Source: an uncultured beta proteobacterium
Lineage (GTDB): Bacteria > Pseudomonadota > Gammaproteobacteria > Burkholderiales > Casimicrobiaceae
DNA length: 64,000 nucleotides
Direction of reading: 5' to 3'
Assembly (NCBI GenBank): GCA_963726775.1
Contig: CAVSDL010000008.1
Location: 105,063 to 169,062 of the forward strand
The notes under the pieces were generated by a model. The model made no database searches and was not told where the DNA came from. It worked only from the letters and a program-made list of their open reading frames with translations. Shown here one piece after another: positions 2,644 to 27,406 of the stretch. Numbering within the stretch: position 1 is the stretch's first letter; every line of letters begins with the position of its first letter. A program made the translations under genes and the position numbers.

Positions 2644-2645
2644 GT

Positions 2646-10866: not shown

Positions 10867-12545
10867 ATGCGAAGGATGTGGTTCCGAGCATCTGGACCAC
10901 CGGCACTACCGAGGTCTTCAAGACCGGCACGTGGCGGGCCGCGTTGCCGCAGCACATCCATGCGCCGTCGCCGTGCCACGCTGCCTGTCCGGTGAACGGC
11001 GACATCGCCGAGTGGATCGGCCGTGCCCGCGCGCGTGACTTTCGCGGCGCGTGGGAAATTCTCACGCGCCACAACCCCTTTCCCGCGGTGGCCGGGCGCA
11101 TCTGCCATCACCCGTGCGAAGCGGCATGCAATCGCGCCGGTCTCGATGGGTCGCTCTCGATCTGCCGGCTCGAGCGCTATATCGGTGATCGGGCGCTCGC
11201 GGAAGGCTGGGCGTTTGCGCCGATCGAAGCGCCGCGCAAGGAGCGCATCGCGGTCGTGGGTGGCGGACCGTCGGGCCTCTCGGCAGCGTTTCACCTGCGA
11301 AGGCGCGGCTACGCGGTCACCTTGTTCGAATCCCGTCCGGAGCTCGGGGGACTGATGCGCTACGGCATTCCGTCGTATCGCCTCGCGCGATCCGTGCTCG
11401 ATGGCGAAATCGCGCGCATCGTGGCCCTCGGGATCGACGTACGCTGCGGTGAGTCGATGGAGACACCAGAAGACTTCGAGCGCCTGCGCAACGGGTTCGA
11501 CGCCGTATACCTCGCCATCGGGGCCCGGTGCCAGAAGCGCCTGCCCCGGCTCGATTACACGCGGCCCTGGGTGATGGACGGTGCCGACTACCTGGCGCGG
11601 GCGAACGCCGGTGCTCCGCCCGCGCTCGGCAAGCGCGTGGTCGTGATCGGCGGCGGAAGCGCCGCCCTCGATGCCGCGCGCAGCGCACGGCGCGCCGGGC
11701 ACGAGGTCACGATCCTTGCGCTCGAAAGCGTGTCGCAGATGCCGGCGCAGCCTGAGGAAATCGCCGAAGCGCTGGAGGAAGGAATTGCGCTGGTCGACGG
11801 CGCGATGCTGACCGAGGCCATCGACAGGGGCGGCGCGGGCCTCGAGCTCAAGTGCGTGCGCGTGCGGTTCGAGTCGGGTGCAGCGCGCGGGCAATTCACG
11901 GTGACCCCGGTCGCCGGCAGCGAATTCTCGCTCGAGGCGGATGCCGTCGTCCCGTCGATCGGGCAGGACCCCGACCTGGCGCCGCTCTCTTCCATGCTCG
12001 CAGCGGACGGTGCGCTGCTCGCCGCCGATCATCGTCAGGCGACGAGCCTCGAGCGCGTGTACGCCGGCGGCGATGTCGCGAGCATGGCGCGCTTCGTGAC
12101 CGAGGCGATCGGCATGGGCAAGCGCGCCGCGCGCGAGATCGACCGCGTGTTGCGCGACGGCGCGCAGGGTGCGGAACGCAGCCACGCCGATGCCGGCGCA
12201 GATTTCGCGGCCGAGCCCGTCGTCAAGCTCGCGGCGATCAACACGTTCTATTACGCCGGACAGGCGCGGACCGTGGAGCAACGGCTCCCCGCCGCGCAGC
12301 GCCTCGCAAGCGACTCCGAGGTTCAGCTCGGCTTCGAACTCGAGCAGGCGCTCGCCGAGACCGAGCGCTGTTTCTCCTGCGGAACCTGCATCCAGTGCGA
12401 CAACTGCGTTCACTACTGTCCCGATCTCGCGGTGAAACGCGAGGCCGATGGCTATGTGGTCCTGACCGACTACTGCAAGGGATGCGGCGTCTGTGTGGCG
12501 GAGTGCCCGACCGGTTCGATGAAGATGATCGAGGAAGCGCGATGA
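10863..12545 (+). CDS. GltD-like NAD(P)H/FAD oxidoreductase fused to a 2x[4Fe-4S] ferredoxin (delta-like) domain
   Basis: ATG 10863 overlaps the gamma-subunit stop (ATGA). There is an N-terminal Cys-rich region (CHAACPVNGDI, CHHPCEAACNR). Two dinucleotide folds follow (VVGGGPSGLSAA, VIGGGSAALDAA), as in the glutamate synthase small subunit. The C-terminus has CFSCGTCIQCDNCVHYCP and CKGCGVCVAECP. Confidence 0.85.
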   Translation: MNAKDVVPSIWTTGTTEVFKTGTWRAALPQHIHAPSPCHAACPVNGDIAEWIGRARARDFRGAWEILTRHNPFPAVAGRICHHPCEAACNRAGLDGSLSICRLERYIGDRALAEGWAFAPIEAPRKERIAVVGGGPSGLSAAFHLRRRGYAVTLFESRPELGGLMRYGIPSYRLARSVLDGEIARIVALGIDVRCGESMETPEDFERLRNGFDAVYLAIGARCQKRLPRLDYTRPWVMDGADYLARANAGAPPALGKRVVVIGGGSAALDAARSARRAGHEVTILALESVSQMPAQPEEIAEALEEGIALVDGAMLTEAIDRGGAGLELKCVRVRFESGAARGQFTVTPVAGSEFSLEADAVVPSIGQDPDLAPLSSMLAADGALLAADHRQATSLERVYAGGDVASMARFVTEAIGMGKRAAREIDRVLRDGAQGAERSHADAGADFAAEPVVKLAAINTFYYAGQARTVEQRLPAAQRLASDSEVQLGFELEQALAETERCFSCGTCIQCDNCVHYCPDLAVKREADGYVVLTDYCKGCGVCVAECPTGSMKMIEEAR

Positions 12546-12621
12546 GCGCTGCATGGTTGCCTCGAGGCGTGGGGGTCCACCCGTGAACGCGCGCGACGAT
12601 ACCGTTGCGCGGGAGCAGCCG

Positions 12622-13758
12622 ATGCTCCTGACCGGCAACCACGCGGTCGCCTGGGCGGCTCGCCTGGCGCGACCCAAGGTGGTCCCGGTCTATCCGATCA
12701 CGCCACAGACGCCGATTCTCGAGAAGATCACCGAATTCCAGGCCGACGGCGAGTTCGACGCCGAGGTCATCACGCCCGAGTCCGAGCACTCGGTGATGGC
12801 CGCCTGCATTCCGGCGTCGCTGGCGGGCGTTCGCGTGTTCACGGCGACGGCCTCGCAGGGCCTGCTGCTCATGCACGAACTGCTCCATTACGCGAGCGGC
12901 GCGCGGGCGCCGATCGTGATGGCCAACGTCAACCGGACGCTTGCCTCGCCGTGGGCGTTCTGGCCCGACCAGACCGACAGCCTCGCGCAGCGCGACACCG
13001 GCTGGATCCAGTACTACACGGAGAGCGCGCAGGAGTCGCTCGACACGGTGATCCAGGCGTTCAAGGTCGCCGAACGGGTGCTGCTGCCGGTGATGGTGAA
13101 CCACGATGCGTTCTACGTCTCGCACGCGCTCGAGCCGGTGTACGTGCCGGCGCAGGAGCTGGTCGATGCCTTCCTGCCGCCGTACGCGCCCGAGCATCGC
13201 CTCGACACCGCGAAGGTCGAGTCCTGGGGCAACGTGGTGACGCAGGACATGTTCTATCGCCACCGCCAGGCGCTCGGCGACGCGATGGGGGAGGCCCCAG
13301 TGGCCGCGCTCGACGCGGACCGCGAATGGGGTGAGCTCACCGGCCGCAGCTACGGGCTGGTCGAGCGCTACCGTTGCGAAGGCGCCCGCACCGTCATCGT
13401 GACGATGGGCAGCATGTGCGGCACCGCGCGCGATGCGGTCGATGCGATGCGCGATGCGGGCGTGGCGGTCGGCCTGCTGAAGGTGCGGCTGTTCCGGCCG
13501 CTTCCGGTGCAGGCGCTGCTCGCCGGCCTGGCCGGTGTACCCGAGGTGCTGGTGCTCGATCGCAACTATTCGCCCGGCCATGGCGGCGTGCTGCACCAGG
13601 AATTGCGCGCCGCGCTCTACGGCATGCCTGACGCGCCGCGGATTCACGGCTATCTCGCGGGCGTGGGCGGCGTCAACGTTTCACCGGAGAAGATCGCCGA
13701 GTTCGTCCGGATGGCGAGCGCGAGCGAAGCACAGCCGGATTCGGTCTGGGTGAGATGA
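12622..13758 (+). CDS. 2-oxoacid:acceptor oxidoreductase, alpha subunit
   Basis: ORF 12553..13758. The ATG at 12622 is preferred because GGGAG lies 6 nt upstream ([16 protein letters not shown]...). It has the YPITPQTP motif and PorA-like domain order. The start is uncertain (12553, 12584 or 12622). Confidence 0.88.
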
Positions 13759-14677
13759 ACGGCCCCGCACGCTGACATTCTCTGTTCAGGGCACGCGGCG
13801 TGTCCGGGCTGCGTGGATGCCCTGTCGGTGCGGCACGTTCTCGCCACGCTCGGACCGAAGACGATGGCCGTCGTTCCGCCCTCGTGCATGGCGGTCATCG
13901 CGGGTCCGCAACCGTACAGCGCGACTCAAGATTCCCGTCTACCAGCCGACGCTCGAAGCGAGCGCCGCCGCGGCAACGGGCCTTCGCCGCGCGCTCGACG
14001 CGCGGGGCGAGCACGACACGCAGGTGATCGTTCTCGCCGGCGACGGCGGCACCTATGACATCGGCTTTCAGTGCCTGTCGTCCGCGGCCGAGCGCAACGA
14101 GAACTTCATCTACTTCTGCCTCGACAACGAAGGCTACATGAACACCGGGGCGCAGAAATCTTCGTCGACGCCGCATCTGGCGAGCACCGGATCGACCCCC
14201 GCCGGCAAGACCTCGCGCAAGAAGAATCTCACCGAGATCATGGCGGCCCACGAGGTGCCCTACGCGGCTACCGCGAATGTCGGCTTCCTGCCCGACCTGA
14301 TCCGCAAGGTCGAGAAGGCCAGGACGATGCACGGCACGCGAATCATCACCCTGCTCATTCCCTGCCTCGATGGCTGGGGGCTGCCCGACGACGCGGGCCT
14401 GACGGCCGCGCGTTATGCGGTCGAGAGCGGCACGTTCCCGCTCTACGAAGTCGAGAACGGGCGCACCTACACGCTCAACTACACGTCGAAGATGCGCCCG
14501 GTAAGCGACTATCTGGCGCTGCAGCGCCGCTATCGGCATTTGAGCCCGGCCGACATCGAAACGCTGCAAGCCGAGGTCGACGACCGCTGGGCGAGACTGC
14601 TGCAGCGGGTCGAGGCTGGAAAGCCGGCACTCGGCGACATGAACACCGCGAGCAATTCCGGCGCATCGAGTTCGTAA
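13755..14677 (+). pseudogene. 2-oxoacid:acceptor oxidoreductase beta (TPP/FeS) subunit, interrupted by two +1 frameshifts
   Basis: ATG 13755 overlaps the alpha-subunit stop (ATGA) and reads MNGPA(R), then hits TGA at 13773. The next frame continues [52 protein letters not shown]. From about c13927 the third frame continues [18 protein letters not shown]...[15 protein letters not shown]...[10 protein letters not shown] to 14677. All pieces are PorB-like. Total length is 923 nt, which is 3n+2. Confidence 0.8.
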
Positions 14678-16901: not shown

Positions 16902-16965
16902 CGACGCCTTGATCGCGAGGTGCGTGCGCGTGCGCGTGCAGGCGCTCATCGCCGGAGGGGGGCGC

Positions 16966-17799
16966 GTGCGGCACCAGTCGCTGCTGGCGTATGCGAAGTA
17001 CCGGTATCTGAAAGTCGCGGCGCTGGTCGTGGCCGCTACGATCGCCGCGTACGCGCTTCATCGCCCGCCGGGCGGCCGCTACGGCGGCACATGGCTCGGC
17101 TACACGCTGGGCACCGTCGGCATGCTCCTGATCATCGGGCTTGCCTGGTTTGGCGTCCGCAAGCGCCAGTACAGTTCGACCGCCGGGACGCTGCTCGGCT
17201 GGCTCTCCGCGCACGTGTATCTCGGCATCACGCTGCTCGTCATCGCCACGTTGCACGCCGCGTTCCAGGTCGGCTGGAACGTGCACACCCTTGCTTACGC
17301 GCTGATGGTTGCCGTGATCGCATCCGGCTTCTACGGTGTGTGGGCGTATCTCAAGCATCCGCGCGCAATCACCGACGCGCTCGGCGAAGATACGCAGGAG
17401 TCCCTGCTCCTGAAGATCGCCGACCTCGATCGGCAGATGCGCGCGCTGGCGCTGGCGCTTCCCGATGCCGTCAACCGGCTGGTGCTCGCGGCGGCGCAGG
17501 AGACGCGGATCGGCGGCAGCTGGCGCGAGCAGCTCGCCGGTCACGACGCACATTGTCCTACTACGGCTGCAGTGACGGGCCTGCAGGCTGTCGGCAAGAC
17601 GTTGCGCGGCGGCGAGGCGCAAGCGAGCCAGCAACTCTACGCGCTGATGGTGCGCAAGCAGGAACTTGTCGCGCGCGCGCGCCGCGCCGTCGCGCTGAAG
17701 GCGCGGCTCGACGCCTGGCTCTACATCCACGTGCCGCTGTCGATCGCGCTCGTCGCGGCGCTGGTCGCCCACGTGGTCAGTGTGTTCTTCTACTGGTAG
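16966..17799 (+). CDS. Five-TM membrane protein with two H-X13-H helices (putative dihaem cytochrome b-like redox subunit)
   Basis: ORF 16672..17799. Its 5-prime part is repeat copy A, so the start was moved to GTG 16966, 7 nt after GGAGG (16954-16958). TM3 is SAHVYLGITLLVIATLHAAF and TM5 is YIHVPLSIALVAALVAHVV. Each has two His residues separated by 13 residues. Confidence 0.6.
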   Translation: MRHQSLLAYAKYRYLKVAALVVAATIAAYALHRPPGGRYGGTWLGYTLGTVGMLLIIGLAWFGVRKRQYSSTAGTLLGWLSAHVYLGITLLVIATLHAAFQVGWNVHTLAYALMVAVIASGFYGVWAYLKHPRAITDALGEDTQESLLLKIADLDRQMRALALALPDAVNRLVLAAAQETRIGGSWREQLAGHDAHCPTTAAVTGLQAVGKTLRGGEAQASQQLYALMVRKQELVARARRAVALKARLDAWLYIHVPLSIALVAALVAHVVSVFFYW

Positions 17800-17814: not shown

Positions 17815-19563
17815 ATGAAGCTCCTGCTCGTCACCGTCACGCGCAACCGCAAGGGCCAGGCGGTGCGCGCGGCGCGCACGCTCGACGGCGAGTCGTTCGC
17901 GGTGGGCCGCGGCACGCCGTGCCCCGTCCACTTGCCCGATCCGCGCGTGGCGCTCGAGCACGCCACCATCTTCGCTGCCGGTGGCGCGACCCGGCTCGCG
18001 GCCGTTGGGGCGGCGACGCTGCTGGTGGACGGGCGCCCCGACCCGGAAGCCACGCTTGCGCCGGGCTCGAAGGTCGAAGTCGGACCGTACGTCCTGACGG
18101 TCGAGGTCCCACCCGCGGGCACGGACCTGGCGATCGCGATCGAATTGCAGCGCTCGCTTCCCGACGATCTCGCCGAAATCAAGGCGCGGTCGAGAATGTC
18201 GCTCGCGGCGACCGGCCTCGCGAAACGCAAGCCGGCGTGGGTGCTGTTAGCGATCGTTCTGGTGCTGTTTCTCGCGGTGCCGGTCGTCAACGCGCTGTAT
18301 CCGCCGCTGCGTGCGCTGACGGCGCAATTGCCGTTGACACCGGATCAGTCGTGGACACCGGGGCCGCTGGCGGCGGGACACGATGCCTTCGGCCGCGAGT
18401 GCGGCAAGTGCCATGAGGTCCCGTTCGTCCGCGTGCGCGACCGCACGTGCCTCGGATGCCATCAGAAGACCCCGGGGCACGCACCGACCGCGCAGTTGCA
18501 GGCCGACCTCTTCGGCGACACGCGCTGCGCGAGCTGCCACGCCGACCACAAAGGCACCGACGGACTGGTGCGCGCGGACTCGGCGCTATGCGCGGAATGC
18601 CACCGAGCGCTGAAGCGGCGATTCGCGGACACGGATCTCGGCGACGCTGCCGATTTCACCAAGGAGCATCCTGAATTCAGGCTCACGCTCTGGAGGGGCC
18701 CCGGCAACGACGACGTCGTGCGCGTCGCGCAGTCGGACAAGGCAAACCTCGTCGAAAAATCGCGCCTCAAGTTTCCGCACGAAGATCATATGAAGCAGAG
18801 CATTCGGAGTGCCAAGGGGCGCGTCACGCTGGAATGCCGGAGTTGTCATATGCCCGATGCCAGCGGCCGCTCCTTCGAGCCGGTCAACATGAAGAGACAT
18901 TGCATCGAATGCCACACGCTGGAGTTCGAGCCCGCGGTAACGACGCGCCAGGTTCCACACGGATCGGTCGACGAAGTCATGTTGACCATGCAGGAGTTCT
19001 ATGCAAGCATCGCCTTGAACGACGTCGCGGTCGATACCGTCGATACCGGCGAGATCCGGCGGGGGATACCCAGGCCCGCCGGAGGCACGGTCACCGAGGA
19101 GCAGCGTCAACGCGCCTTGGCGTGGGCCCGCAGCAAGGCCGGCAAGGTCGCGCAGGATCTGTTCGAGGCGCGGGTCTGCATCGTCTGTCACGAGGTCGTC
19201 AGAATGACGGGACCGGGGGGAGGGCAGAGCGAGACGGCCTGGAATGTCGCGCCCGTCCACGTCGCGACGAGTTGGCTTCCCAAGGCGCGGTTCGATCACC
19301 TCAAACATCGCACCTACAAATGCGATGACTGCCACGACCGGGTCGCGAAGTCGAAGTCCAGCAGCGACGTCTCCATCCCCGGCATCGAGTCCTGCCGTGT
19401 CTGTCACGCGGGCAACGAATCCGCGGCGAACAAGGTGGTGTCGACGTGCGTCGCCTGCCACGCCTTCCACGTGCCCGGCCATGCCCCGATGGGCCGACGC
19501 GCCGGCGCGGCCCGCGGGCACGACCTTGCGCGCGCACCGGCGACCTTCGGGAGCGTGAAGTGA
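17815..19563 (+). CDS. FHA domain - TM anchor - decahaem c-type cytochrome
   Basis: ORF 17815..19563. The N-terminal ~100 aa are FHA-like (FAVGRGTPCPVHLPDPRVALEHATIF...LLVDGRP...GSKVEVGPYVLTVE). One TM helix follows (AWVLLAIVLVLFLAVPVV). Ten CXXCH motifs are present: CGKCH, CLGCH, CASCH, CAECH, CRSCH, CIECH, CIVCH, CDDCH, CRVCH, CVACH. Confidence 0.85.
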   Translation: MKLLLVTVTRNRKGQAVRAARTLDGESFAVGRGTPCPVHLPDPRVALEHATIFAAGGATRLAAVGAATLLVDGRPDPEATLAPGSKVEVGPYVLTVEVPPAGTDLAIAIELQRSLPDDLAEIKARSRMSLAATGLAKRKPAWVLLAIVLVLFLAVPVVNALYPPLRALTAQLPLTPDQSWTPGPLAAGHDAFGRECGKCHEVPFVRVRDRTCLGCHQKTPGHAPTAQLQADLFGDTRCASCHADHKGTDGLVRADSALCAECHRALKRRFADTDLGDAADFTKEHPEFRLTLWRGPGNDDVVRVAQSDKANLVEKSRLKFPHEDHMKQSIRSAKGRVTLECRSCHMPDASGRSFEPVNMKRHCIECHTLEFEPAVTTRQVPHGSVDEVMLTMQEFYASIALNDVAVDTVDTGEIRRGIPRPAGGTVTEEQRQRALAWARSKAGKVAQDLFEARVCIVCHEVVRMTGPGGGQSETAWNVAPVHVATSWLPKARFDHLKHRTYKCDDCHDRVAKSKSSSDVSIPGIESCRVCHAGNESAANKVVSTCVACHAFHVPGHAPMGRRAGAARGHDLARAPATFGSVK

Positions 19564-21428
19564 ACGGAGGAAGCCGCGTCTTGCTGGCGGCCATCGTTCT
19601 CGCGGCGCTCGTCGCAGGCTGCGGCGGCGGCGGTGGCAACGGCGGCAGCCAGGTTTCGACGCCGAATGCACTGACGATCGCCGACGTGCAGCAAGTGATC
19701 GCGCAGGCGGTCGCCGAGGCACAGGCGCGAAACGCGAAGGCAACGATTGCGGTCGTCGATCGCGTCGGCAACGTGCTCGCGGTTTTCAGGATGAACGGCG
19801 CGGCAGCGACGTTCACGATCTCATCGGGCAGCGGCGTGGCCGGAGGGCTCGAGGGCCTGAACATCCTGCCTTCCGAACTGGCCGCGATCTCGAAGGCGAT
19901 CACCGGTGCGTATCTTTCGTCGGAAGGCAACGCGTTCACGACGCGGACCGCGAGCCAGATCATCCAGCAGAACTTCAACCCGGGCGAGCAGAACCAGCCG
20001 TCCGGGCCGCTGTCCGGCGTGCAATTCAGTCAGCTTTCGTGCTCCGACCTGAACCAGCAGGAAACGGCGGGGACCGTCGGACCGAAGCGCGCGCCGCTCG
20101 GCCTTTCCGCGGATCCGGGTGGAATGCCGCTCTACAAGGGCAGCACGCTTGTCGGCGGCGTCGGCGTCATCGCCGATGCGACGTATTCGCTCGACGCCGA
20201 TATCCAGAACACCGACACCGCTCCGGACGAATTGATCGCCGTTGCCGGCGCGTCCGGTTTCACCGCGCCCGCCGACCAGCGCGCGAACCGGATTACCGTT
20301 GATGGCCGTTCACTGAGATATGTCGACAGTGAGACGCTTGCGAGCAATCCGGCGAACGCGCCTTCGTTCGCGGCGATCGACGGCATCGCGGGCGCGTTGG
20401 TCAACGTCGCGGGGTACGGTGGCGCCCCAACGCGTTCCGGCGTCGTATTCGGCACGCCGGCGTCCGGTTTTCGCGCCGACACGAGCGCCGCATTTGCGGG
20501 AACCGGCGCGTACACGCTGGTCGACGCGGCCAACGCGGTCCGTTATCCGCCGACGGCCGGAACCGACGGCTACCTTACGCAGGCCGAGGTGACGCAGATC
20601 CTGCGCAGCGCGCTCGACGTCGCCAATCGCGCTCGCGCGCAGATCCGCCGGCCGCTCGGTTCGGCGGCGCAGGTTTCGGTCGTGGTCGTCGACACGAACG
20701 GAGTCGTGCTGGGACTGGTGCGCACGCCGGACGCGCCGGTGTTCGGCACCGACGTCGCGGTGCAGAAGGCCAGAAGCGCGGCGTTCTTCTCGAGCGCCAA
20801 CGCGGCGGCGCTGCTGTCGTCGCTGCCGCCCGCGCAATATCCGACCACTCCGGCCACGACCTCGTCGATCGCGGCGTACGTGACGGCCACACGACTGTTC
20901 CTCAATGATCCGACGGCGCTCGCCAACGGCGTGGCCTACGCGGTACGCAGCGTGGGGAACCTCTCGCGCCCGTACTTTCCCGATGGCATCGCGGGGACTG
21001 CGAACGGGCCGTTTTCGAAGCCGATCGCGATGTGGAGCCCGTTCAATGACGGTCTCCAGCTCGACCTCGTCGCCAACAAGCTCGTCGCCTCGCTGGCGCT
21101 GGGCGACAACTCGACCGGCTGCACCGGACTTTCCCAGCTGCCGAACGGCATCCAGATATTCCCGGGCGGCGTTCCTGTCTTCCGCGGCGGTCAGCTTGCG
21201 GGTGCTGTCGGGGTGTCGGGTGACGGCATCGACCAGGACGACATGGTCGCGTTCCTCGGGCTCGCCAATGCGGGCAAGGCGCTCGGCACGGGTGTCGCCA
21301 ATGCGCCGGCGGCGATCCGCGCCGACAACCTCGTGCCGCAGGGCACGGGCACGCGGCTGCGCTATGTGAATTGTCCGCAGGCGCCGTTCAATGGCAGCAG
21401 CGAACAGAATGTCTGTGCCGGGCTCTGA
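19560..21428 (+). CDS. Lipoprotein with two GlcG/DUF336 (haem-binding/degrading-like) domains
   Basis: GTG 19560 overlaps the upstream stop (GTGA) and gives VNGGSRVLLAAIVLAALVAGC (lipobox). Domain 1 reads LTIADVQQVIAQAVAEAQARNAKATIAVVDRVGNVLAVFRMNGA...GGMPLYKGSTLVGGVGV. Domain 2 reads LTQAEVTQILRSAL...VSVVVVDTNGVVLGLVRT...GGVPVFRGGQLAGAVGVSGDGIDQDD. Confidence 0.7.
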   Translation: MNGGSRVLLAAIVLAALVAGCGGGGGNGGSQVSTPNALTIADVQQVIAQAVAEAQARNAKATIAVVDRVGNVLAVFRMNGAAATFTISSGSGVAGGLEGLNILPSELAAISKAITGAYLSSEGNAFTTRTASQIIQQNFNPGEQNQPSGPLSGVQFSQLSCSDLNQQETAGTVGPKRAPLGLSADPGGMPLYKGSTLVGGVGVIADATYSLDADIQNTDTAPDELIAVAGASGFTAPADQRANRITVDGRSLRYVDSETLASNPANAPSFAAIDGIAGALVNVAGYGGAPTRSGVVFGTPASGFRADTSAAFAGTGAYTLVDAANAVRYPPTAGTDGYLTQAEVTQILRSALDVANRARAQIRRPLGSAAQVSVVVVDTNGVVLGLVRTPDAPVFGTDVAVQKARSAAFFSSANAAALLSSLPPAQYPTTPATTSSIAAYVTATRLFLNDPTALANGVAYAVRSVGNLSRPYFPDGIAGTANGPFSKPIAMWSPFNDGLQLDLVANKLVASLALGDNSTGCTGLSQLPNGIQIFPGGVPVFRGGQLAGAVGVSGDGIDQDDMVAFLGLANAGKALGTGVANAPAAIRADNLVPQGTGTRLRYVNCPQAPFNGSSEQNVCAGL

Positions 21429-23547
21429 CTTGTTGCGCGCAGCGTGCGCTGCGCTCGCCGTGGCGGCGATGGCCGGCGCCGGCGTTACGCTGGCGCAGAC
21501 TCCCGCCGCGGCGGCCAGAGGCGCGGCGGGGGCTGCGGCAAAGCCGGTCGATGGCCGCTACGGTATGCAGGTCCTCGCCGAGATCGTCAGCGTCCATTCG
21601 GAGCCGAACCCCAGGTCGGCGGTACTTGCCGATCTGCAACAGGGCGCAAAGCTGGAGGCCGATCAGCGCCGCGGCACCTGGTATCGCATCCGGCTTGCGG
21701 ACGGTCGCATCGGATGGATCGGCTACGTCGTCGGCAAGACGAGCGCGAATTTTTCGGTGGACGCCACGCCGGGGCTGGCGCGTGGCGTGCCGAGCGGCGC
21801 CGGTCAGCAGCCGGGGACTGTGGCCGCCGAGCCCGTGGCGCCGCCGGTTGTTGCCGCCGAAGCGGTTCCCGACGATCGCATCGTCGTGCAGCGACCGATG
21901 GGCAGACCGATCGAGCCGCCGATTCCCGAGATCGATCCAGCACAGGTGCCGCCTCCGGAGCCGCTCCTGCCGCGCGAGTCGATCCCGGTGCCCGACCGCT
22001 GGCGACTCACCGATCAGCTCGGCCTCACCGACAATCGCTGGTACGACCCGTACAACCCGAACACGCTGAAGGGCGACCGACCGGTATTCGGCGGCGACTG
22101 GTTCTTCAGCCTGGGCATCGTGTCCGACACGCTCTTCGAAGCGCGCCAGATTCCGACGCCCATCGGCGCGCAGTCCACCGATCGCCCGCAGTCGAACGAC
22201 CAGTTCGGCCGCAACCGGCAGTCGCAGTTCAACGAGAACCTGATCGTCAGCCTGTCGCTGCTGAAGGGCGACACGACGTTCAAGCCGCCGGAAATCGAGC
22301 TGCGGTTCGTGCCGGTCATCAACTTCAACCGCACGGACGTCGGCGAAGTCCGCGTGCTGAAGATCGATCCGCGCCAGGGGACGACGCGCAACGACAGCCA
22401 GGTCGCGGTGCAGGAGCTGTTCGTCGACTACGAGTACCACATCGCCTCCGAGCATTACGACTTCGACAGCGTTCGCGTCGGCATTCAGCCTATCACCGCC
22501 GATTTCCGCGGCCTGCTGTTCCTCGACCAGCCGCTGGGCATCCGCCTGTTCGGCACCCGCGACAACAACCAGTGGCAGTACAACTTCGGGTGGTTCCGCC
22601 GCCTCGAGAAGGACACCAACAGCGGCTTGAACGACATTGGCAAGCCTCTGCGCAACGAGAACATCTTTCTCGCCAACGTGTACCGCCAGGACTTCTGGGT
22701 TCCGGGATTCACGCTGCAAGGCACGGTGATCTACGACGACAACCGCGAGAGCGCGGACGCCTACTACGACAAGAACGGGTTCCAGGTCCGGCCCGCCATC
22801 ATGGGCGACGCGCGGCCGCACACGTATCAGGTCACCTACGTCGGCCTCAATGGCGACGGTCACTTCGGCCGCTGGAACCTCACCGCGTCGCTGTACGGCG
22901 CATTCGGGACGGTCAGCCACGATTCCCTTGCGCAGCAGAAGGTCGACGTCGCCGCCGCCTACGCGGTCGCCGAAGTCTCGCGCGATTTCGACTGGATCCG
23001 CGTGCGCGGCACGGGTCTTCTCCAGAGCGGCGACAAGGATCCGTTCGACAACAAGGCGACCGGCTTCGACGCGATCTACGAAAATCCGCAGATCGCCGGC
23101 GCGGACACCAGTTATTGGATCCGGCAGTCGGTCCCGCTGATCGGCGGCGGAGGCATAGCGCTCTCCGGACGCAACGGCGTGCTCGCCGCGCTGCGCTCGT
23201 CGAAGGACGAGGGCCAGGCCAATTTCACCAACCCCGGGCTCGCGCTGATCGGCGTGGGTGCCGACGCCGATCTCACGCCGCGCTGGCGCGTCATCGGCAA
23301 CCTGAACCAGTTGTGGTTCGCCAATACGTCGTCGCTGTCCGTCCTGCGCAACCAGGGCACGATCAGCCGCACCGTGGGCACCGACGTGTCGATGGCGGTC
23401 CAGTACCGTCCGCTGTTCTCGCAGAACGTCGTCCTGAATGCATCCGCGGCGGCGCTGATTCCGGGGCAGGGGCTGAAGCAGCTGTACGCGTTCGACGGCG
23501 GCAAGACGCAGTACTCGATCCTCTTCAACCTGCTGCTGACCTATTGA
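21409..23547 (+). CDS. Outer-membrane beta-barrel protein with N-terminal bacterial SH3-like domain
   Basis: ORF 21391..23547. ATG 21409 gives the signal peptide MSVPGSDLLRAACAALAVAAMAGAGVTLAQ. An SH3b-like segment follows (SVHSEPNPRSAVLADLQQGAKLEADQRRGTWYRIRLADGRIGWIGYV), then a Pro-rich linker. The remaining ~480 aa have alternating amphipathic strands and end in the aromatic terminus LFNLLLTY. Confidence 0.65.
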   Translation: MSVPGSDLLRAACAALAVAAMAGAGVTLAQTPAAAARGAAGAAAKPVDGRYGMQVLAEIVSVHSEPNPRSAVLADLQQGAKLEADQRRGTWYRIRLADGRIGWIGYVVGKTSANFSVDATPGLARGVPSGAGQQPGTVAAEPVAPPVVAAEAVPDDRIVVQRPMGRPIEPPIPEIDPAQVPPPEPLLPRESIPVPDRWRLTDQLGLTDNRWYDPYNPNTLKGDRPVFGGDWFFSLGIVSDTLFEARQIPTPIGAQSTDRPQSNDQFGRNRQSQFNENLIVSLSLLKGDTTFKPPEIELRFVPVINFNRTDVGEVRVLKIDPRQGTTRNDSQVAVQELFVDYEYHIASEHYDFDSVRVGIQPITADFRGLLFLDQPLGIRLFGTRDNNQWQYNFGWFRRLEKDTNSGLNDIGKPLRNENIFLANVYRQDFWVPGFTLQGTVIYDDNRESADAYYDKNGFQVRPAIMGDARPHTYQVTYVGLNGDGHFGRWNLTASLYGAFGTVSHDSLAQQKVDVAAAYAVAEVSRDFDWIRVRGTGLLQSGDKDPFDNKATGFDAIYENPQIAGADTSYWIRQSVPLIGGGGIALSGRNGVLAALRSSKDEGQANFTNPGLALIGVGADADLTPRWRVIGNLNQLWFANTSSLSVLRNQGTISRTVGTDVSMAVQYRPLFSQNVVLNASAAALIPGQGLKQLYAFDGGKTQYSILFNLLLTY

Positions 23548-23549
23548 GA

Positions 23550-26500
23550 ATGCGCGCGATGGCACATGGCAATCGTCGGACCGGCGACCGTCGGCAAGGA
23601 CAGGCGCGCGCCGGTGCCGTCTGCGCGGCGTGGCTGCCTCTGGCGGCCGGCGCGGTTCTCGCCGTGCTCTCCGCGCTGGCCTACGGGACCGGCGGGGAGT
23701 CGCCGGTGGCGCGCAACTACCTGCCGCAGGCGCCGGCGCCGGAACGCCAGACGCTCGCCGTGGCACAGGTGAAGTCGCAAGGCTGCAAGAGCTGCCACAC
23801 GGCGAGCGACCACGAGACGATGCACGTCAACCCCGCGGTGATCCTGGGATGCGCGGACTGCCACGGCGGCGACCCGAAGGTCACGAGGCCGCAGGGTGCG
23901 GAGCCGAAGGACCCGGCCTACCGGAACGCCGTGGCGAGCGCGCACGTGCTGCCGCGCTATCCGGTGGCGTGGAAATATCCGTCGAGCGCCAATCCGCCCG
24001 ACAGCTACACGCTGCTCAACCGCGAGGCGCCCGAATACGTGCGCTTCGTCAATCCCGGGGATTACCGCGTGGCGCGGGAATCCTGCGGCGCCTGCCATCT
24101 GCGCATCATCCAGGCGACCGAGCGAAGCCTGATGTCCAGCAGCGCCATGCTGTGGGGCGGCGGGTCGTACAACAACGGCATCCTGCCCTTCAAGCGCTAC
24201 GTGCTGGGCGAAGCGTATACGGCGCAAAGCGAGGCGGCGACGATCGTCAATCCGATCCCGCCGACGCCGCTGATGACCGAGAAAGGCATCCTGCCGCGGC
24301 TCTACCCGTTGCCGGCCTGGGAAACCGTGCCGCCGGGCGACGTCTTTCGCGTTTTCGAGCGCGGCGGGCGCGTGATCTCGAGCCAGTTCCCGGAAATCGG
24401 ACTGCCGAACATTGCCGGCGCGCTGCAAAGGCTCGACGAGCCCGGTCGCCCCGACATCCGGCAGTCGAACCGCGGGCCGGGCACCGGGCTCCGCATTTCG
24501 GTGCCGGTGCTCAACATCACGAAGACGCGGTTGAACGATCCGCACATGTGGTTCCTCGGGACGAACGAGCAGCCGGGTGACTACCGGTCGTCGGGGTGCT
24601 CCGGCTGCCACGCCGTCTACGCGAACGACCGCGACCCGAAGCACAGCGGCCCTTACGCGGCGTTCGGTCACGAAGGGCAGTCGCAAACCGCCGATCCGAC
24701 GATCGCGCGGGGCGAGTCCGGCCACCCGCTGAAGCACGAGTTAACGCGGGCGATTCCCTCGTCGCAGTGCATGGTCTGCCACATGCACCAGCCGAACGTT
24801 TTCGTGAATTCGTATTTCGGATTCATCATGTGGGACTACGAATCCGACGCGCCTTTCATGTGGCCGGAGAAGCAGCGTTACCCGACCGGCGCCGAGACGC
24901 GCGCGATCCTCGACCGCAATCCCGAGGAGGCGGCGATCCGCGGCAAGTGGAGCGACCCCGAGTTCCTTAAGGACGTCAGCGCGCTCAACGCGCAGCTCAA
25001 GGATACGCAGTTCGCCGACTACCACGGCCACGGCTGGAACTTCCGCGCGGTGTTCAAGCGCGACCGCAAGGGAACGCTGCAGGACAAGGACGGCAAGCCG
25101 GTCTCCGACGACGACCCGGACAAGTTCAAGAAGGCGGTGCACCTGACGTCGATCCACATGGACCTCGGCATGCACTGCGTGGACTGCCACTTCGCGCAGG
25201 ACGCGCACGGCAACGGCCACATCTACGGCGAGGTGGCGGCGGCCATCGAGATCGACTGCGCCGACTGCCATGGTACGGCGACGAAGTATCCGACGCTCTT
25301 CACGTCCGGCCCGGCTTCGCAGCCCGGCGGCACCGACCTGTCGCTGCTGCGCACGCAGGACGGGCGCAAGCGCTTCGAGTGGCGCGACGGCAAGCTCTAC
25401 CAGCGCGCGGCGCTCGACCCCGACAAGGAATGGGAGATGTCGCTGGTCAAGGACACCGTCAATCCGCTGCATCCGAAGTACAACGTCAAGGCCGCCAGGG
25501 CGAAGCTCATGTCGACCGGCGACTCGATGCAGTGGGGGCCCGGCGTCGACCCGCAGAAATACGCGCACGGCGACGACAAGGTGACCTGCCAGACCTGCCA
25601 CCTGTCGTGGACCACCAGCTGCGCGGGCTGCCACCTGCCGATCCAGGCGAACGCGAAGACCGAGCGCCACCACTACGAGGGCGGCGAAACGCGCAACTTC
25701 GCGACGTACAACCCGCAGGTCGCGCGCGACGACATGTTCCAGCTCGGCCGCCACGGCGATGCGAAGAACTTCAGGATCGCGCCGGTGCGCTCCAGCTCGG
25801 CGCTGGTGCTGTCGTCGACCAACATCAACCGCGAGCGGATCTACATCCAGCAGCCACCCGTCGCGGCGTCGGGATTCAGCTCGCAGGCGTTTGCGCCGCA
25901 CTATCCGCATACCGAGCGCAAGACCGAGACCAAGACCTGCCCCGACTGCCATCTGTCGAAGAGCAACGACAACAACGCGATCATGGCGCAACTCCTCCTG
26001 CAGGGGACGAATTTCGTCAACTTCGTCGGCTACAACGCGTGGGTCGGCGAGGAGCGCCGCGTCACTGCCGTGCAGGTGACCGAGTGGGACGAGCCGCAGG
26101 CCGTGATCGGCAGCTACCTGCACCGCTACGCGTACCCCGACTGGTACGCCCAGCACCAGCAGCGCGACAAACGGCTGCCGACGATGTCGACGCACGACAC
26201 GAAGGGCGCCGCCCGCTGCCTGCAACTGCGCGGCGAATACCTCTACGTCGCCGAAGGCGCGGGAGGGATGCGCGTCTACGACGTCGCCAGCATCGCCAAC
26301 AAGGGAGTGTCGCAGAAGATCCTGAGCGCGCCGTTCGCGCCCTGGGGCCAGGACACGCACATCCGCTCGACGAACGCCACCTGCGTGGCGCTGCCGACCA
26401 ACCAGCCGATCGCCCCGCAGCGCAACGAGGGCGATCTGATGCGGGTGACGAATCAGGAGCAGCCGTTCCACCCGATGTACAACTACGCGGCGATCACCGA

Positions 26501-27398
26501 CGCGGTCGAGGGCCTGATCCTCACCAACGTCAACACGCTCGCCGACGGCGACCCGCAGAACAACTTCCTCGTGCGCGCGGTGACGTGGAACGAGAACGGC
26601 ATTCTCAACGGCGCGCGCCACATCACGCTGGGCGGGCGCTACGCCTATGTCGCCGCCGATGCCGGGCTCGTCGTCGTCGATCTCGACGATCCGCTCAAGC
26701 CGAAGCTGGTCGCGATCGTCGCCCTGAAGGGTGTGCGCGCCTCGGCGCTGCAGTTCCGCTACCTGTTCGTTGCCGACGACGCCGGATTGACGACCGTCGA
26801 CGTCACCGATCCGGCGCGGCCGCGGCACGTGGGCACCGCGCGCGTCCCGCTTGCCGACGCCAACCGCATCTACGTGGCACGCACCTACGCCTACGTCGCC
26901 GCCGGCAAGGAAGGGCTTGCGATCGTCGACGTCGAGCAGCCGGAGGCGCCGAAGCTGTACATGAAATTCACCGCCGAAGGCAGACTCGACGACGCGCGCG
27001 ACGTCGTCGTCGGCAGCACCAACGCGTCGCTGTTCGCCTATGTCGCCGACGGCGCGAACGGCCTCAAGGTGGTGCAGATGACCGCGCCGGACACGCAGCC
27101 GAAATTCTACGGATTCTCGCCGGATCCCAAGCCGCAGCTGATCGCGTGGCGCGGTACGGTGACGCCCGCGCTGGCGCTGTCGAAGGGACTCGACCGCGAC
27201 CGCGCGGTGGATGAGACCGGCGGCCAGATCGCGGTGTTCGGCCGGATCGGCTCGCGCCCGTTCACGTTGGAAGAGATGAAGAAGTTCTACCAGCGCCCCG
27301 ACGGCACGGTGTGGACCGTGACCGACGAGGTCCGGATGCAGGAGTTCGTGCCCGCGCGCGCGACGGCGGCTGACACCCGGCCGTTGCCGAGGCAGTGA
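23550..27398 (+). CDS. Large decahaem c-type cytochrome fused to a C-terminal LVIVD-repeat beta-propeller (1282 aa)
   Basis: This is the real gene within track ORF 21444..27398. ATG 23550 lies 2 nt after the OMP stop. There is an N-terminal hydrophobic anchor or signal (AVCAAWLPLAAGAVLAVLSALAYG). Ten CXXCH motifs are present: CKSCH, CADCH, CGACH, CSGCH, CMVCH, CVDCH, CADCH, CQTCH, CAGCH, CPDCH. At least five LVIVD-type repeats follow (YLYVAEGAGGMRVYDV, YAYVAADAGLVVVDLDDP, YLFVADDAGLTTVDVTDP, YAYVAAGKEGLAIVDVEQP, FAYVADGANGLKVVQM). Confidence 0.85.
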   Translation: MRAMAHGNRRTGDRRQGQARAGAVCAAWLPLAAGAVLAVLSALAYGTGGESPVARNYLPQAPAPERQTLAVAQVKSQGCKSCHTASDHETMHVNPAVILGCADCHGGDPKVTRPQGAEPKDPAYRNAVASAHVLPRYPVAWKYPSSANPPDSYTLLNREAPEYVRFVNPGDYRVARESCGACHLRIIQATERSLMSSSAMLWGGGSYNNGILPFKRYVLGEAYTAQSEAATIVNPIPPTPLMTEKGILPRLYPLPAWETVPPGDVFRVFERGGRVISSQFPEIGLPNIAGALQRLDEPGRPDIRQSNRGPGTGLRISVPVLNITKTRLNDPHMWFLGTNEQPGDYRSSGCSGCHAVYANDRDPKHSGPYAAFGHEGQSQTADPTIARGESGHPLKHELTRAIPSSQCMVCHMHQPNVFVNSYFGFIMWDYESDAPFMWPEKQRYPTGAETRAILDRNPEEAAIRGKWSDPEFLKDVSALNAQLKDTQFADYHGHGWNFRAVFKRDRKGTLQDKDGKPVSDDDPDKFKKAVHLTSIHMDLGMHCVDCHFAQDAHGNGHIYGEVAAAIEIDCADCHGTATKYPTLFTSGPASQPGGTDLSLLRTQDGRKRFEWRDGKLYQRAALDPDKEWEMSLVKDTVNPLHPKYNVKAARAKLMSTGDSMQWGPGVDPQKYAHGDDKVTCQTCHLSWTTSCAGCHLPIQANAKTERHHYEGGETRNFATYNPQVARDDMFQLGRHGDAKNFRIAPVRSSSALVLSSTNINRERIYIQQPPVAASGFSSQAFAPHYPHTERKTETKTCPDCHLSKSNDNNAIMAQLLLQGTNFVNFVGYNAWVGEERRVTAVQVTEWDEPQAVIGSYLHRYAYPDWYAQHQQRDKRLPTMSTHDTKGAARCLQLRGEYLYVAEGAGGMRVYDVASIANKGVSQKILSAPFAPWGQDTHIRSTNATCVALPTNQPIAPQRNEGDLMRVTNQEQPFHPMYNYAAITDAVEGLILTNVNTLADGDPQNNFLVRAVTWNENGILNGARHITLGGRYAYVAADAGLVVVDLDDPLKPKLVAIVALKGVRASALQFRYLFVADDAGLTTVDVTDPARPRHVGTARVPLADANRIYVARTYAYVAAGKEGLAIVDVEQPEAPKLYMKFTAEGRLDDARDVVVGSTNASLFAYVADGANGLKVVQMTAPDTQPKFYGFSPDPKPQLIAWRGTVTPALALSKGLDRDRAVDETGGQIAVFGRIGSRPFTLEEMKKFYQRPDGTVWTVTDEVRMQEFVPARATAADTRPLPRQ

Positions 27399-27406
27399 GG
27401 AACACC

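Follow-up and report, generated by a model that had tools for sequence, protein, structure and literature searches.

A cytochrome with a cytoplasmic FHA domain and a periplasmic decahaem domain, and its possible place in an electron conduit of the cell envelope

Proteins in which an FHA domain is combined with a multihaem cytochrome have appeared in two earlier reports. A table row in Hoover et al. 2023 (PMC10734462) reads 'Cluster 403, Forkhead-associated protein, 10 CXXCH', with function unassigned, and this cluster is present in 27 of 87 iron-oxidiser genomes. The 'NHC' of Ferrigenium straubiae, whose function is likewise unassigned, consists of a cytosolic FHA domain, a TM helix and a nonahaem domain. 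Its gene neighbours encode a 5-TM protein, in which no redox motif was found, and a [4Fe-4S] protein, and quinone coupling was proposed for this FHA-nonahaem cytochrome (bioRxiv 10.64898/2026.01.22.701106). The protein considered here has every described feature of NHC and Cluster 403, the comparison being one of descriptions: an FHA domain in the cytosol at the N-terminus, a single TM helix and, in the periplasm, 9-10 haems. It differs from these Gallionellaceae proteins in being a decahaem version from a Casimicrobiaceae-like betaproteobacterial lineage and in belonging to a longer operon of seven genes. The FHA-multihaem fusion is not a one-off; the first-pass annotation of this DNA missed that it represents a large family of which the literature has already taken note. 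Of all steps in extracellular electron transfer and in iron oxidation, the passage of electrons across the inner membrane is the one least understood outside Shewanella and Geobacter.

The window, i.e. the entire 64-kb stretch of DNA that was analysed, carries the following features.

16930-17799, + strand: 5-TM inner-membrane protein of about 277-289 aa (start approximate), predicted dihaem b
17815-18150, + strand: residues 1-112 of the cytochrome, its cytoplasmic domain with FHA fold (Pfam, PDB profile, AF2, Foldseek)
18151-18234, + strand: conserved juxtamembrane linker (residues 113-140) that contains an AF2-predicted helix (118-126) and a basic KRK motif
18235-18291, + strand: the only transmembrane helix, residues 141-159 (19-residue Kyte-Doolittle mean of up to 2.9)
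18292-19563, + strand: periplasmic decahaem c-type cytochrome domain of c7/c3-like modules (10 CXXCH)
19560-21428, + strand: lipoprotein with three HbpS/GlcG-like (PF03928) domains (lipobox LVAGC)
21391-23547, + strand: secreted protein X, with a signal peptide, SH3_3, then about 550 aa with an aromatic end (GC3 0.87)
23547-27398, + strand: exported decahaem cytochrome with a C-terminal LVIVD β-propeller (10 CXXCH; 4 LVIVD repeats, E=4e-24)
27395-28768, + strand: periplasmic cytochrome c554-like protein (4 CXXCH and 1 CX4CH)
28832-31246, + strand: cytoplasmic flavoprotein of 804 aa (TrxR/YpdA-like FAD/NAD(P)H, two cNMP-binding and four-[4Fe-4S] ferredoxin domains)

The open reading frame at 17815-19563 (+) encodes a protein of 582 aa. 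Its CXXCH motifs, exactly ten in number, begin at residues 196, 212, 238, 259, 341, 363, 455, 503, 527 and 545, while 20,000 composition-preserving shuffles of the protein contain 0.03 such motifs on average and 3 at most. The lone hydrophobic helix, AWVLLAIVLVLFLAVPVV (residues 141-159), precedes all of them, as the first-pass annotation had it. It is flanked by KRK on its N-side and by a net-neutral C-side, and the equivalent segment is hydrophobic in essentially all full-length cluster representatives. In the linker, P114, D117 and L130 are conserved and R138 is invariant. The N-in/C-out orientation follows from the positive-inside rule, from the lack of a signal peptide and from the need of haem attachment for the periplasm. 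The protein thus has its FHA domain in the cytoplasm and its decahaem domain in the periplasm, with one TM helix between them, which bears out the architecture originally proposed for it.

The FHA pattern that had been read into residues 1-100 is upheld as a fold by Pfam, PDB profile, AF2 and Foldseek, but not to the letter, because the literal 'NG' is absent and the sequence reads LLVDG. PF00498 matches the isolated residues 1-138 with 21.5 bits (gathering cut-off 20.7) and the full-length cytochrome with 18.4 bits, slightly below the Pfam cut-off. The best Pfam match of the N-terminus is PF16697 (E=1e-6), which gives 25.8-29.3 bits (29.3 for the isolated region) and stays under its cut-off of 33.2. 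All 26 relatives tested match both PF00498 (best E=8.9e-10) and PF16697 (best E=1.5e-11). The relative P0267 scores 41.4 bits with PF00498 and 37.4 bits with PF16697, being one of the few relatives that pass the PF16697 cut-off. In a search of the PDB with a profile of the family N-terminus, FHA domains are found, with FhaA, GarA and OdhI leading (best E=2.4e-4); non-FHA matches are weaker, with E 0.03 and above. The AF2 model of the region is all-β, in line with the eleven-stranded sandwich of FHA domains, with a pLDDT of 86.5 overall and >90 for residues 1-110. When this model is compared with the PDB by Foldseek, the top 50 matches are all FHA domains, with E down to 1.5e-6 and TM-scores, normalised to the target, of up to 0.78. 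The structure prediction and HMM check suggested for the N-terminus therefore returned an FHA fold (AF2, Foldseek, PF00498), and residues 1-112 are shown, in the predicted model, to fold as an FHA β-sandwich.

The conservation of individual residues was followed in 183 relatives. G31 and R32 of the β3-β4 loop are present in 182 of 182 aligned relatives, one of the 183 rows being gapped there, and R44 is conserved to the same extent (182/182, one row gapped). D42 is conserved in 98%, G90-P91 in 99% and Y92 in 94% of the 183 sequences, and H49 of the β4-β5 loop is kept in 156 of them (85%). The canonical phosphate-contacting Ser corresponds to Ala46 in the window protein. Position 46 is A in 68%, S in 17% and N in 7% of the relatives, and A, L, P, R, S or N are found there across 72 cluster representatives. 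The position of the Asn that contacts pT+1 (the N of NG) is variable across the aligned relatives, with no conservation. The family-specific invariants D42, R44 and G90-P91-Y92 map, in the AF2 model, to the ligand-binding loops β3-4, β4-5 and β10-11. The FHA region and the cytochrome domain are similarly constrained, with mean identities of 52% and 57%, respectively. Judged from these alignments, the FHA domain of the cytochrome is a non-canonical one, in which Gly-Arg is kept and the Ser and Asn are unconserved.

In the periplasmic part, ten further histidines are invariant (189, 222, 245, 285, 322, 325, 382, 495, 498 and 552). Their number fits ten distal ligands, and the decahaem domain is consistent with an all-bis-His haem wire. 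PF14522, PF14537 and PF02085 all exceed their cut-offs on this domain, and a PDB profile search with it matched Geobacter c7-type domains. The CXXCH count is 10 in 178 of the 183 relatives and 9 in the other 5. The protein scores 22.1 bits with the MtrA/DmsE decahaem family TIGR03508 (cut-off 192.2) and 18 bits with OmcA/MtrC TIGR03507 (cut-off 209.3), and no NapC/NirT family match to the FHA-cytochrome was obtained even at E up to 10.

The gene directly upstream of the cytochrome encodes, in 76 of 76 loci, the 5-TM protein, of which the first-pass annotation made no mention. Histidines H181 and H195 in TM3, H353 and H367 in TM5, and H205 are at least 99% conserved (n=192; numbering of the 375-aa ORF), and they include two HX13H pairs at matching membrane depths. 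A cytoplasmic helical insert of about 85 aa (roughly residues 229-308 in the same numbering) is placed between TM4 and a long stalk that runs into TM5. PF01292 (prokaryotic cytochrome b561) matches 39 of 41 members weakly (best E=4e-7); for the window protein the score is 19.4 bits, with the cut-off at 30.1. A PDB profile search with the 5-TM protein found no sequence relative, and Foldseek with its AF2 model (pLDDT 78) gave nothing significant, the top three matches being plant cytochrome b561 with E=0.29. Because of the histidine spacing and the sub-threshold PF01292 matches, the 5-TM protein is predicted to be a dihaem b-type cytochrome with its haems on the two HX13H pairs. It is likely to be the membrane-spanning redox element.

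The HbpS-like lipoprotein follows the cytochrome in 70 of 72 loci and is probably translationally coupled to it via a GTGA overlap. Protein X, whose gene is present in 65 of 67 loci, matches SH3_3 with E=4e-8. Its homologues have a C-terminal Y or F in 65 of 65 cases and it is probably an outer-membrane β-barrel; a PDB sequence search with it gave no match. The frame 21391-23547 is taken as the true one because of its high GC3. A single 1,984-aa fusion at 21444-27398 was rejected, as GC3 is 0.34-0.58 over its first 2.1 kb and 0.86-0.96 after that; the BLAST matches of its N-terminal part are off-frame echoes, and the real genes are those of protein X and of the LVIVD decahaem. The latter is found in 57 of 59 loci and has the highest conservation of all proteins in the operon (median identity 73%). 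It has a weak match to MtrC/MtrF domain II/IV and none in a PDB sequence search. The c554-like cytochrome is present in 52 of 54 loci.

The cNMP/FeS flavoprotein, which had been noted downstream of the cytochrome, is indeed encoded at 28832-31246. It has no TM segment, and its four-[4Fe-4S] ferredoxin domain is C-terminal, with 16 invariant Cys in four cluster motifs (residues 639-782) that resemble FdnH/DmsB/NrfC-type wires. In known enzymes, wires of this type dock on membrane subunits. The flavoprotein gene is the last of the operon in 41 of the 45 loci with enough flank, two of two reverse look-ups agree, and its product is second in conservation among the components of the module (median identity 69%). 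Locus L059 retains the 5-TM protein, the FHA-cytochrome, the c554-like protein and the flavoprotein. Loci L085 and L086 contain the flavoprotein, the 5-TM protein and an FHA-9-haem cytochrome alone, with 4-bp gene overlaps; in L085, a distant 9-haem relative, the flavoprotein is immediately upstream in this three-gene core. These three genes thus make up the minimal core in distant relatives. The 9-haem variants with the three-gene core sit inside the same homologous family as the window protein, and the gene set of L085 and L086 matches the Ferrigenium cluster as described in bioRxiv 10.64898/2026.01.22.701106. A cyclase gene is located directly upstream of the core in L085. Two ORFs of the window, 36423-38837 (804 aa) and 39244-40992 (582 aa), have the lengths of the flavoprotein and the cytochrome, yet they encode unrelated proteins and show no BLAST match and no CXXCH. 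The GltD-like and 2-oxoacid:ferredoxin oxidoreductase genes at 10233-14677, considered as GarA-style FHA targets, are not syntenic in other loci.

The FHA-TM-9/10-haem architecture recurs in no fewer than 340 species genomes and, at 50% identity, makes up at least 71 clusters; it is widespread and uncharacterised, and the Gallionellaceae are added to it by the literature. All of 71 diverse cluster representatives have FHA at residues 1-138, a TM helix and then 9-10 haems. Carriers of the module include members of the Casimicrobiaceae, Usitatibacteraceae, Lysobacteraceae, Moraxellaceae and Vicinamibacteria. One relative is a PilZ-FHA-TM-decahaem protein, and in P0088 the cytochrome and the HbpS-like lipoprotein seem to be naturally fused. 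As for P0251 (methyltransferase and FHA) and P0299 (5-TM C-terminus and FHA), chimerism or read-through in gene calling seems a better account than an informative fusion.

By combining these data, it is possible to outline how the module might work. The cytochrome would be the inner-membrane c subunit of an envelope electron conduit, and its FHA domain would dock or organise a cytoplasmic partner, probably in a phosphorylation-free manner; the chances that this description is right are about even. The 5-TM protein would carry two b haems on its two invariant HX13H pairs. Electrons would pass from NAD(P)H to FAD, through the four FeS clusters and to the haem b of the cytoplasmic side, then to the haem b of the periplasmic side and to the decahaem domain, and from there to the c554-like cytochrome, the LVIVD decahaem and the outer-membrane barrel. 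The outward direction is favoured because of the membrane potential. The FHA domain, being the sole cytoplasmic part of the cytochrome, would serve as a docking or assembly module that holds the flavoprotein and/or the cytoplasmic helical insert of the 5-TM protein on the complex. Its binding face would consist of the conserved loops R32, D42-P43-R44 and G90-P91-Y92, which might recognise an acidic or possibly phosphorylated epitope by means other than the classical Ser/Asn chemistry. We infer the docking of a cytoplasmic partner, for which GarA and OdhI on their target enzymes and SctD on the T3SS sorting platform are precedents. That this partner is the flavoprotein, as suggested earlier, is supported by its place in the same conserved operon and its adjacency in the three-gene core, but gene neighbourhood cannot name the contact of the FHA domain. 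Regulation would probably be exerted by nucleotide second messengers, through the cNMP domains of the flavoprotein and PilZ in one relative, and not by a dedicated kinase.

An error of sequencing or annotation could have joined an FHA gene to a cytochrome gene, or the FHA similarity could be due to chance. Spurious long ORFs do arise in high-GC DNA, as the neighbouring 'giant ORF' at 21444-27398 illustrates. However, the GC3 of the FHA-cytochrome ORF is 0.84, the same unbroken architecture recurs in 183 relatives and 71 diverse clusters, and the structure prediction is confident, with FHA domains in all of the top 50 Foldseek positions. An artefact is thus already refuted and its probability is negligible. 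Phospho-threonine reading, the function first attributed to the domain, would imply that a kinase encoded elsewhere marks the partner, and that binding switches the conduit or controls its assembly. Part of the attribution has support: Gly31 and Arg32 are invariant, His49 is 85% conserved, and the structures that come nearest, those of GarA, OdhI and FhaA, belong to genuine pThr readers. Invariant TxxL motifs are present in the flavoprotein (T629-D-V-L and T656-S-R-L) and in the 5-TM insert (T139-D-N-L). A Pkinase gene lies 9 kb off in one locus (L003), an FHA protein and a PP2C phosphatase are encoded about 10 kb off in L085, and a RIO-type kinase is encoded in the window at 6754-7659. The attribution is weakened, for 68% of relatives have Ala in place of the Ser that contacts phosphate, the residue at this position varies widely across representatives, the pT+1 Asn is unconserved, and no Hanks kinase motif was found in the 64-kb window or in 84 related loci. 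The RIO1 kinase, considered as a partner, is syntenic in the closest relative only, and neither the Pkinase of L003 nor the PP2C of L085 is a conserved neighbour. A classical pThr reader is therefore unlikely, while the invariant Arg32 and the Ser at position 46 in 10-17% of relatives leave phospho-dependent binding some chance.

The cofactors could also be connected differently. Cytochromes b of the PF01292 type normally exchange electrons with quinones, so that the membrane core might act as a quinol oxidoreductase and the flavoprotein might do something else. In that case a quinol:cytochrome c (or reverse) oxidoreductase, analogous to CbcL, ImcH or CymA/cM552, would be made up of the 5-TM protein and the decahaem, the FHA domain would serve oligomerisation or regulation, and the unwired flavoprotein might be e.g. 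a cNMP-responsive redox enzyme or sensor. The PF01292-like signal of the 5-TM protein points to a family with quinone-using members, Geobacter CbcL shares the cofactor logic of a dihaem b with a 9-haem c domain, and nitrifier c554-type cytochromes feed a membrane quinone reductase. Quinone coupling is also what the Ferrigenium preprint proposes (bioRxiv 10.64898/2026.01.22.701106). Nevertheless, every reduced version of the cluster keeps the flavoprotein, with overlapping genes; it is the second most conserved component, and its four-cluster domain is of the type that docks on membrane subunits. We regard a quinone-coupled core with an unwired flavoprotein as rather improbable. Finally, the FHA-like domain might be a purely structural element of ring formation or oligomerisation that has no ligand of its own, as in T3SS SctD/YscD. 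The FHA-TM-periplasmic layout is that of SctD, the best N-terminal Pfam match is PF16697, which is found in 26 of 26 relatives, and the SctD structure 4d9v is among the Foldseek matches. Against this, the invariant residues cluster in the canonical ligand-binding loops and not on the sheet faces, no T3SS genes are present in the window or related loci, and SctD itself binds the sorting platform via this domain. A purely structural role is very unlikely.

The conduit with a docking FHA domain can be carried one step further. Together with the 5-TM dihaem b and the FHA-decahaem, the flavoprotein might constitute a hitherto unrecognised, quinone-independent transmembrane NAD(P)H:cytochrome c oxidoreductase with an FHA clamp and cNMP gating, a proposal that is tentative and would more probably fail than hold. 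The clamp would bring the four-cluster flavoprotein to the membrane, and the export of electrons to a 25-haem periplasmic and outer-membrane chain would be gated by cyclic nucleotides (in some lineages by c-di-GMP or phosphorylation). This would add a new class to the inner-membrane entry points of extracellular electron transfer, with carriers in the hundreds among soil, wastewater and iron-cycling bacteria. If the wiring is true, it would provide a direct route of electrons from NAD(P)H to the periplasm under second-messenger control, and the roles of FHA domains would extend from phospho-signalling to the assembly of respiratory complexes. In no studied system known to us do these parts occur together: a multihaem cytochrome with an FHA domain, a new candidate cytochrome b with five TM helices, and a four-cluster flavoprotein that binds cNMP.

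Several known systems resemble the module in part. Geobacter CbcL and ImcH and Shewanella CymA (NapC/NirT) are likewise periplasmic multihaem c-type cytochromes that are anchored in the inner membrane and feed an extracellular chain. In CbcL, a dihaem b is combined with a 9-haem c domain. The present module differs from these systems in that its b-type and c-type parts are divided between two proteins, the cytochrome has an FHA domain in the cytoplasm and a cytoplasmic FeS flavoprotein is an obligate operon partner. Compared with the tetrahaem NapC/NirT proteins (CymA, cM552), there is a 140-residue cytoplasmic domain before the anchor, and there are ten haems.

SctD (YscD/PrgH/EscD), the inner-ring protein of the T3SS, has the same layout, in that a single TM helix joins an FHA-like domain in the cytoplasm to a domain in the periplasm. 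Its FHA is likewise devoid of the full pThr-binding set, and docks a cytoplasmic complex. In the window protein, however, a decahaem domain takes the place of the ring-building motifs, Arg32 is retained, the PF16697 score is under the cut-off (29.3 vs 33.2 bits) and the surroundings are free of T3SS genes. The closest structures are those of GarA and OdhI (Foldseek E of about 1e-6, TM-score normalised to target 0.7-0.78), which are FHA regulators of 2-oxoglutarate dehydrogenase, GDH and GOGAT. The loop face of their FHA domain binds metabolic redox enzymes directly, and the pThr pocket takes a non-phosphorylated acidic residue. GarA and OdhI are soluble, can be phosphorylated on an N-terminal tail and have the canonical Ser and Asn, whereas the FHA domain of the cytochrome is tethered to the membrane and has neither residue.

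The proposed docking of a four-cluster FeS protein on a dihaem-b membrane subunit has its counterpart in the FdnH-FdnI pair of formate dehydrogenase-N (Fdn-N), in which FdnI belongs to PF01292. The polarity would be reversed relative to Fdn-N because the FeS protein of this module is cytoplasmic. Some complexes of the Hmc/Tmc/DsrMKJOP type also link periplasmic multihaem cytochromes with cytoplasmic FeS proteins. Homology to Fdn-N and to these complexes is limited to generic ferredoxin and weak b561 signals; the module described here has no molybdopterin subunit, and the FHA and cNMP domains are unique to it.

The open reading frame at 17815-19563 (+) encodes a protein of 582 residues, the FHA-cytochrome, with exactly ten CXXCH motifs, all within residues 196-549; 20,000 composition-preserving shuffles of the protein gave a mean of 0.03 and a maximum of three such motifs. 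Residues 141-159 form a single strongly hydrophobic helix, with KRK before it and a net-neutral stretch after it. The N-terminus carries no signal peptide, and residues 2-10 are strand 1 of the FHA domain in the AF2 model (pLDDT 95). As the signal peptide is absent, the basic residues flank the sole transmembrane (TM) helix on its N-side, and c-type haems are attached in the periplasm, the FHA domain is assigned to the cytoplasm and the haems to the periplasm. The first-pass annotation had described an FHA domain joined through one TM helix to a periplasmic decahaem cytochrome, and this architecture and orientation are borne out. In a related locus (L003), the ccm operon is immediately upstream of the FHA-cytochrome cluster.

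Beyond the histidines of the motifs, exactly ten are invariant among 29 diverse relatives (189, 222, 245, 285, 322, 325, 382, 495, 498 and 552). This number fits ten bis-His haems, which would make the domain a wire with no catalytic site. Profile searches of Pfam and the PDB find the haem domain similar to c7/c3-type modules, and membership tests place the protein outside the MtrA/DmsE, OmcA/MtrC and NapC/NirT families.

As the full-length protein scores weakly against the FHA-type Pfam models, just below both cut-offs (PF16697, E=1.3e-5; PF00498, E=2.9e-3), the fold of its N-terminus was checked independently. Taken alone, the N-terminus clears the PF00498 cut-off (21.5 versus 20.7 bits), and both models are matched by 26 of 26 relatives tested. 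A profile made from 26 family N-termini finds the FHA domains of FhaA, GarA and OdhI in the PDB (best E=2.4e-4), its non-FHA matches being weaker (E of at least 0.03). The AF2 model of the N-terminus is confident and all-beta (pLDDT over 90 across residues 1-110), and a Foldseek search of the PDB with it gives FHA domains in all of the best 50 places (lowest E 1.5e-6, target-normalised TM-score up to 0.78). As profile, AF2 and Foldseek all give an FHA fold, the earlier observation stands; of the FHA pattern on which it was based, the fold holds, but the literal 'NG' is absent and the canonical Ser is Ala46.

Judged from its sequence relatives, the protein is a member of a family and no accident. 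A word-indexed search returned 226 homologues, and relatives are encoded in at least 340 GTDB species genomes, nearly all of them MAGs, from Casimicrobiaceae, Usitatibacteraceae, other Burkholderiales, Arenimonas, Lysobacter, other Lysobacteraceae, Moraxellaceae and Vicinamibacteria. An exhaustive HMM search was made with an FHA-plus-linker profile, and full-length representatives of 50%-identity clusters were taken from the top 150. At least 71 have the FHA domain at 1-138, a TM helix at about 138-165 and then the haems, with ten CXXCH motifs in 65 and nine in 6 of the 71. Across 183 non-redundant relatives, mean identity to the window protein is 52% in the FHA region and 57% in the cytochrome domain; the FHA region, conserved as much as the cytochrome domain, is under selection rather than a relic. 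One public relative (P0297, 694 residues), which stands for a cluster of the family, has a PilZ domain ahead of the FHA domain (PilZ-FHA-TM-decahaem; PilZ E=6.6e-13), in which the RxxxR and NxSxxG motifs of this c-di-GMP-binding domain are both visible.

The FHA-cytochrome is the second gene of a conserved operon.

Genes of the operon in the window, with the related loci in which each is found
16930-17799, 5-TM protein, upstream of the FHA-cytochrome; 76 of 76 loci
17815-19563 (+), FHA-cytochrome
19560-21428, lipoprotein with three HbpS-like domains, GTGA overlap with the FHA-cytochrome stop codon; 70 of 72 loci
21391-23547, protein X; 65 of 67 loci
23547-27398, LVIVD decahaem cytochrome, the most conserved member; 57 of 59 loci
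27395-28768, c554-like cytochrome; 52 of 54 loci
28832-31246, flavoprotein of 804 residues; 41 of 45 loci

The four loci without the flavoprotein probably end too early. The three domains of the lipoprotein are HbpS/GlcG-like (PF03928), and a public protein of 773 residues (P0088) is an apparent natural fusion of the FHA-cytochrome with it, which hints at a physical association of the two. A 1,984-residue frame at 21444-27398 was rejected as a single gene because its first 2.1 kb are out of frame: GC3 stays at 0.34-0.58 as far as about 23540 and then rises to 0.86-0.96, and the real genes are protein X, in another frame, and the LVIVD decahaem cytochrome. Protein X starts with a signal peptide, followed by an SH3_3 domain and then about 550 residues, for the barrel part of which no relative was found in Pfam or the PDB. 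In 65 of 65 homologues the chain ends with Y or F (...NLLLTY), a hallmark of outer-membrane beta-barrels. Protein X is thus probably an outer-membrane beta-barrel and the partner of the adjoining cytochrome, the two resembling a porin-cytochrome pair. The LVIVD decahaem cytochrome ends in an LVIVD beta-propeller; its median identity, 73% versus 44% for the FHA-cytochrome, points to a role that is catalytic or under tight constraint. Its alignment to the ExtM model is short, local and far under the cut-off.

Elsewhere in the window, a MaeB-like malic enzyme with a PTA domain (31312-33604) is split between two frames near 32700, possibly by a frameshift, a pseudogene or a sequencing error. Upstream of the operon, 10233-14677 encodes a GltD-like FeS flavoprotein together with a 2-oxoacid:ferredoxin oxidoreductase (alpha and beta subunits); because other loci do not keep these genes in synteny with the operon, a connection with the FHA domain is improbable, the GarA analogy notwithstanding. 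The products of 36423-38837 (-) and 39244-40992 (+), with 804 and 582 residues, equal the flavoprotein and the FHA-cytochrome in length by coincidence and are unrelated proteins.

The operon can be reduced to a small core. One locus (L059) retains just the 5-TM protein, the FHA-cytochrome, the c554-like cytochrome and the flavoprotein. Two loci with a distant nine-haem relative of 35% identity (L085 and L086) have only three genes, for the flavoprotein (54% identical to its window counterpart), the 5-TM protein (42%) and the FHA-cytochrome, with overlapping or abutting coding regions and adjoining sox genes. Reverse look-up from flavoprotein homologues led to the same operon in two of two cases.

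The 5-TM protein belongs to no curated family and has no PDB relative by profile search. Its H181/H195 (TM3), H353/H367 (TM5) and H205, numbered on a 375-residue ORF, reach 99% conservation or more across 192 sequences. An N-in topology would put one His of each HX13H pair near each membrane face, which is the classic dihaem-b arrangement. Cytochrome b561 (PF01292) is weakly matched by 39 of 41 members (best E=4e-7) and fills the top three Foldseek places, without significance. The flavoprotein, in which no TM segment was found, combines a TrxR/YpdA-like FAD/NAD(P)H domain with two cNMP-binding domains and four cluster motifs, which together contain 16 invariant Cys (residues 639-782). These form a predicted wire of four [4Fe-4S] clusters, of the FdnH/DmsB/NrfC/HybA type; in characterised enzymes, wires of this kind dock on a membrane subunit.

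In the FHA domain, the invariant G31 and R32 are accompanied by H49, which 85% of 183 relatives keep. The phosphate-contacting Ser position holds Ala in 68% and Ser in 17% of them, varying among A, L, P, R, S and N in 72 diverse representatives, and the pT+1-contacting Asn is variable too. Other residues are invariant in this family: D42 (98-100%), P43, R44 (96-100%), G90-P91 (99-100%) and Y92/F. The AF2 secondary structure places R32 in the beta3-beta4 loop, D42, P43 and R44 in the beta4-beta5 loop, and G90-P91-Y92 in the beta10-beta11 turn. As these loops make up the peptide-binding face of FHA domains, the face is conserved with its chemistry altered, and the domain is non-canonical. The changed Ser and Asn positions argue against classical pThr control through the FHA domain, as does the lack of a Hanks kinase motif in the window and in 84 related loci; such control is unlikely. 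A RIO1-domain atypical serine kinase is encoded about 10 kb upstream (6754-7659 (-); PF01163, E=2e-42), and was rejected as a conserved partner because the closest relative (L005) is alone in having it near the operon. In L085, a stand-alone FHA protein and a PP2C phosphatase are about 10 kb off.

Upon the domain architecture, fold, conservation and synteny established here, an overall reading can be built that has an even chance of being correct: a conduit from NAD(P)H through the decahaem to the outer membrane, with the flavoprotein docked on the FHA domain and the cytoplasmic helical insert of the 5-TM protein. Electrons would pass from NAD(P)H to FAD, through the four [4Fe-4S] clusters to two b haems of the 5-TM protein, and then to the decahaem, the c554-like cytochrome, the LVIVD decahaem cytochrome and the outer-membrane barrel, along 25 c-haems in all. 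The membrane potential would favour this outward flow, and binding by the FHA domain would be phospho-independent or phosphomimetic. A quinone-coupled core, to which the flavoprotein is unconnected, seems improbable; this reading, pThr control and the NAD(P)H conduit could in part be true together. Regulation is more likely to come from nucleotide second messengers because of the cNMP-binding domains, the PilZ-bearing relative and the class III nucleotide cyclase genes beside the module, which fit those domains. In L085 a response-regulator-cyclase (5493-6614) is directly upstream of the flavoprotein and hence of the core; in L004 a CHASE2-cyclase (1033-3248) is about 6 kb upstream.

The fusion itself has been noticed before. 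A table row in a Gallionellaceae pangenome (PMC10734462) reads 'Forkhead-associated protein, 10 CXXCH, 27 of 87 genomes', and one paragraph of a 2026 preprint calls the combination of FHA and multihaem previously unreported (bioRxiv 10.64898/2026.01.22.701106). Full-text literature searches gave no mention beyond these two accounts, and the literature holds neither an assigned function nor an experiment. New here are the three-gene core, the dihaem-b candidate, the four-cluster flavoprotein, the non-canonical FHA face and the putative outer-membrane barrel.

The core of L085 and L086 matches the make-up described for the Ferrigenium straubiae cluster, an FHA-nonahaem 'NHC' with a 5-TM protein and a [4Fe-4S] protein (same preprint). 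The FHA-TM layout resembles that of SctD, the window protein lying outside PF16697 (SctD-type) by membership test. The module is an inner-membrane multihaem electron-transfer module, and in working terms the CbcL/CymA-type inner-membrane cytochromes and the FdnHI/Hmc-type transmembrane redox complexes are among the systems closest to it.
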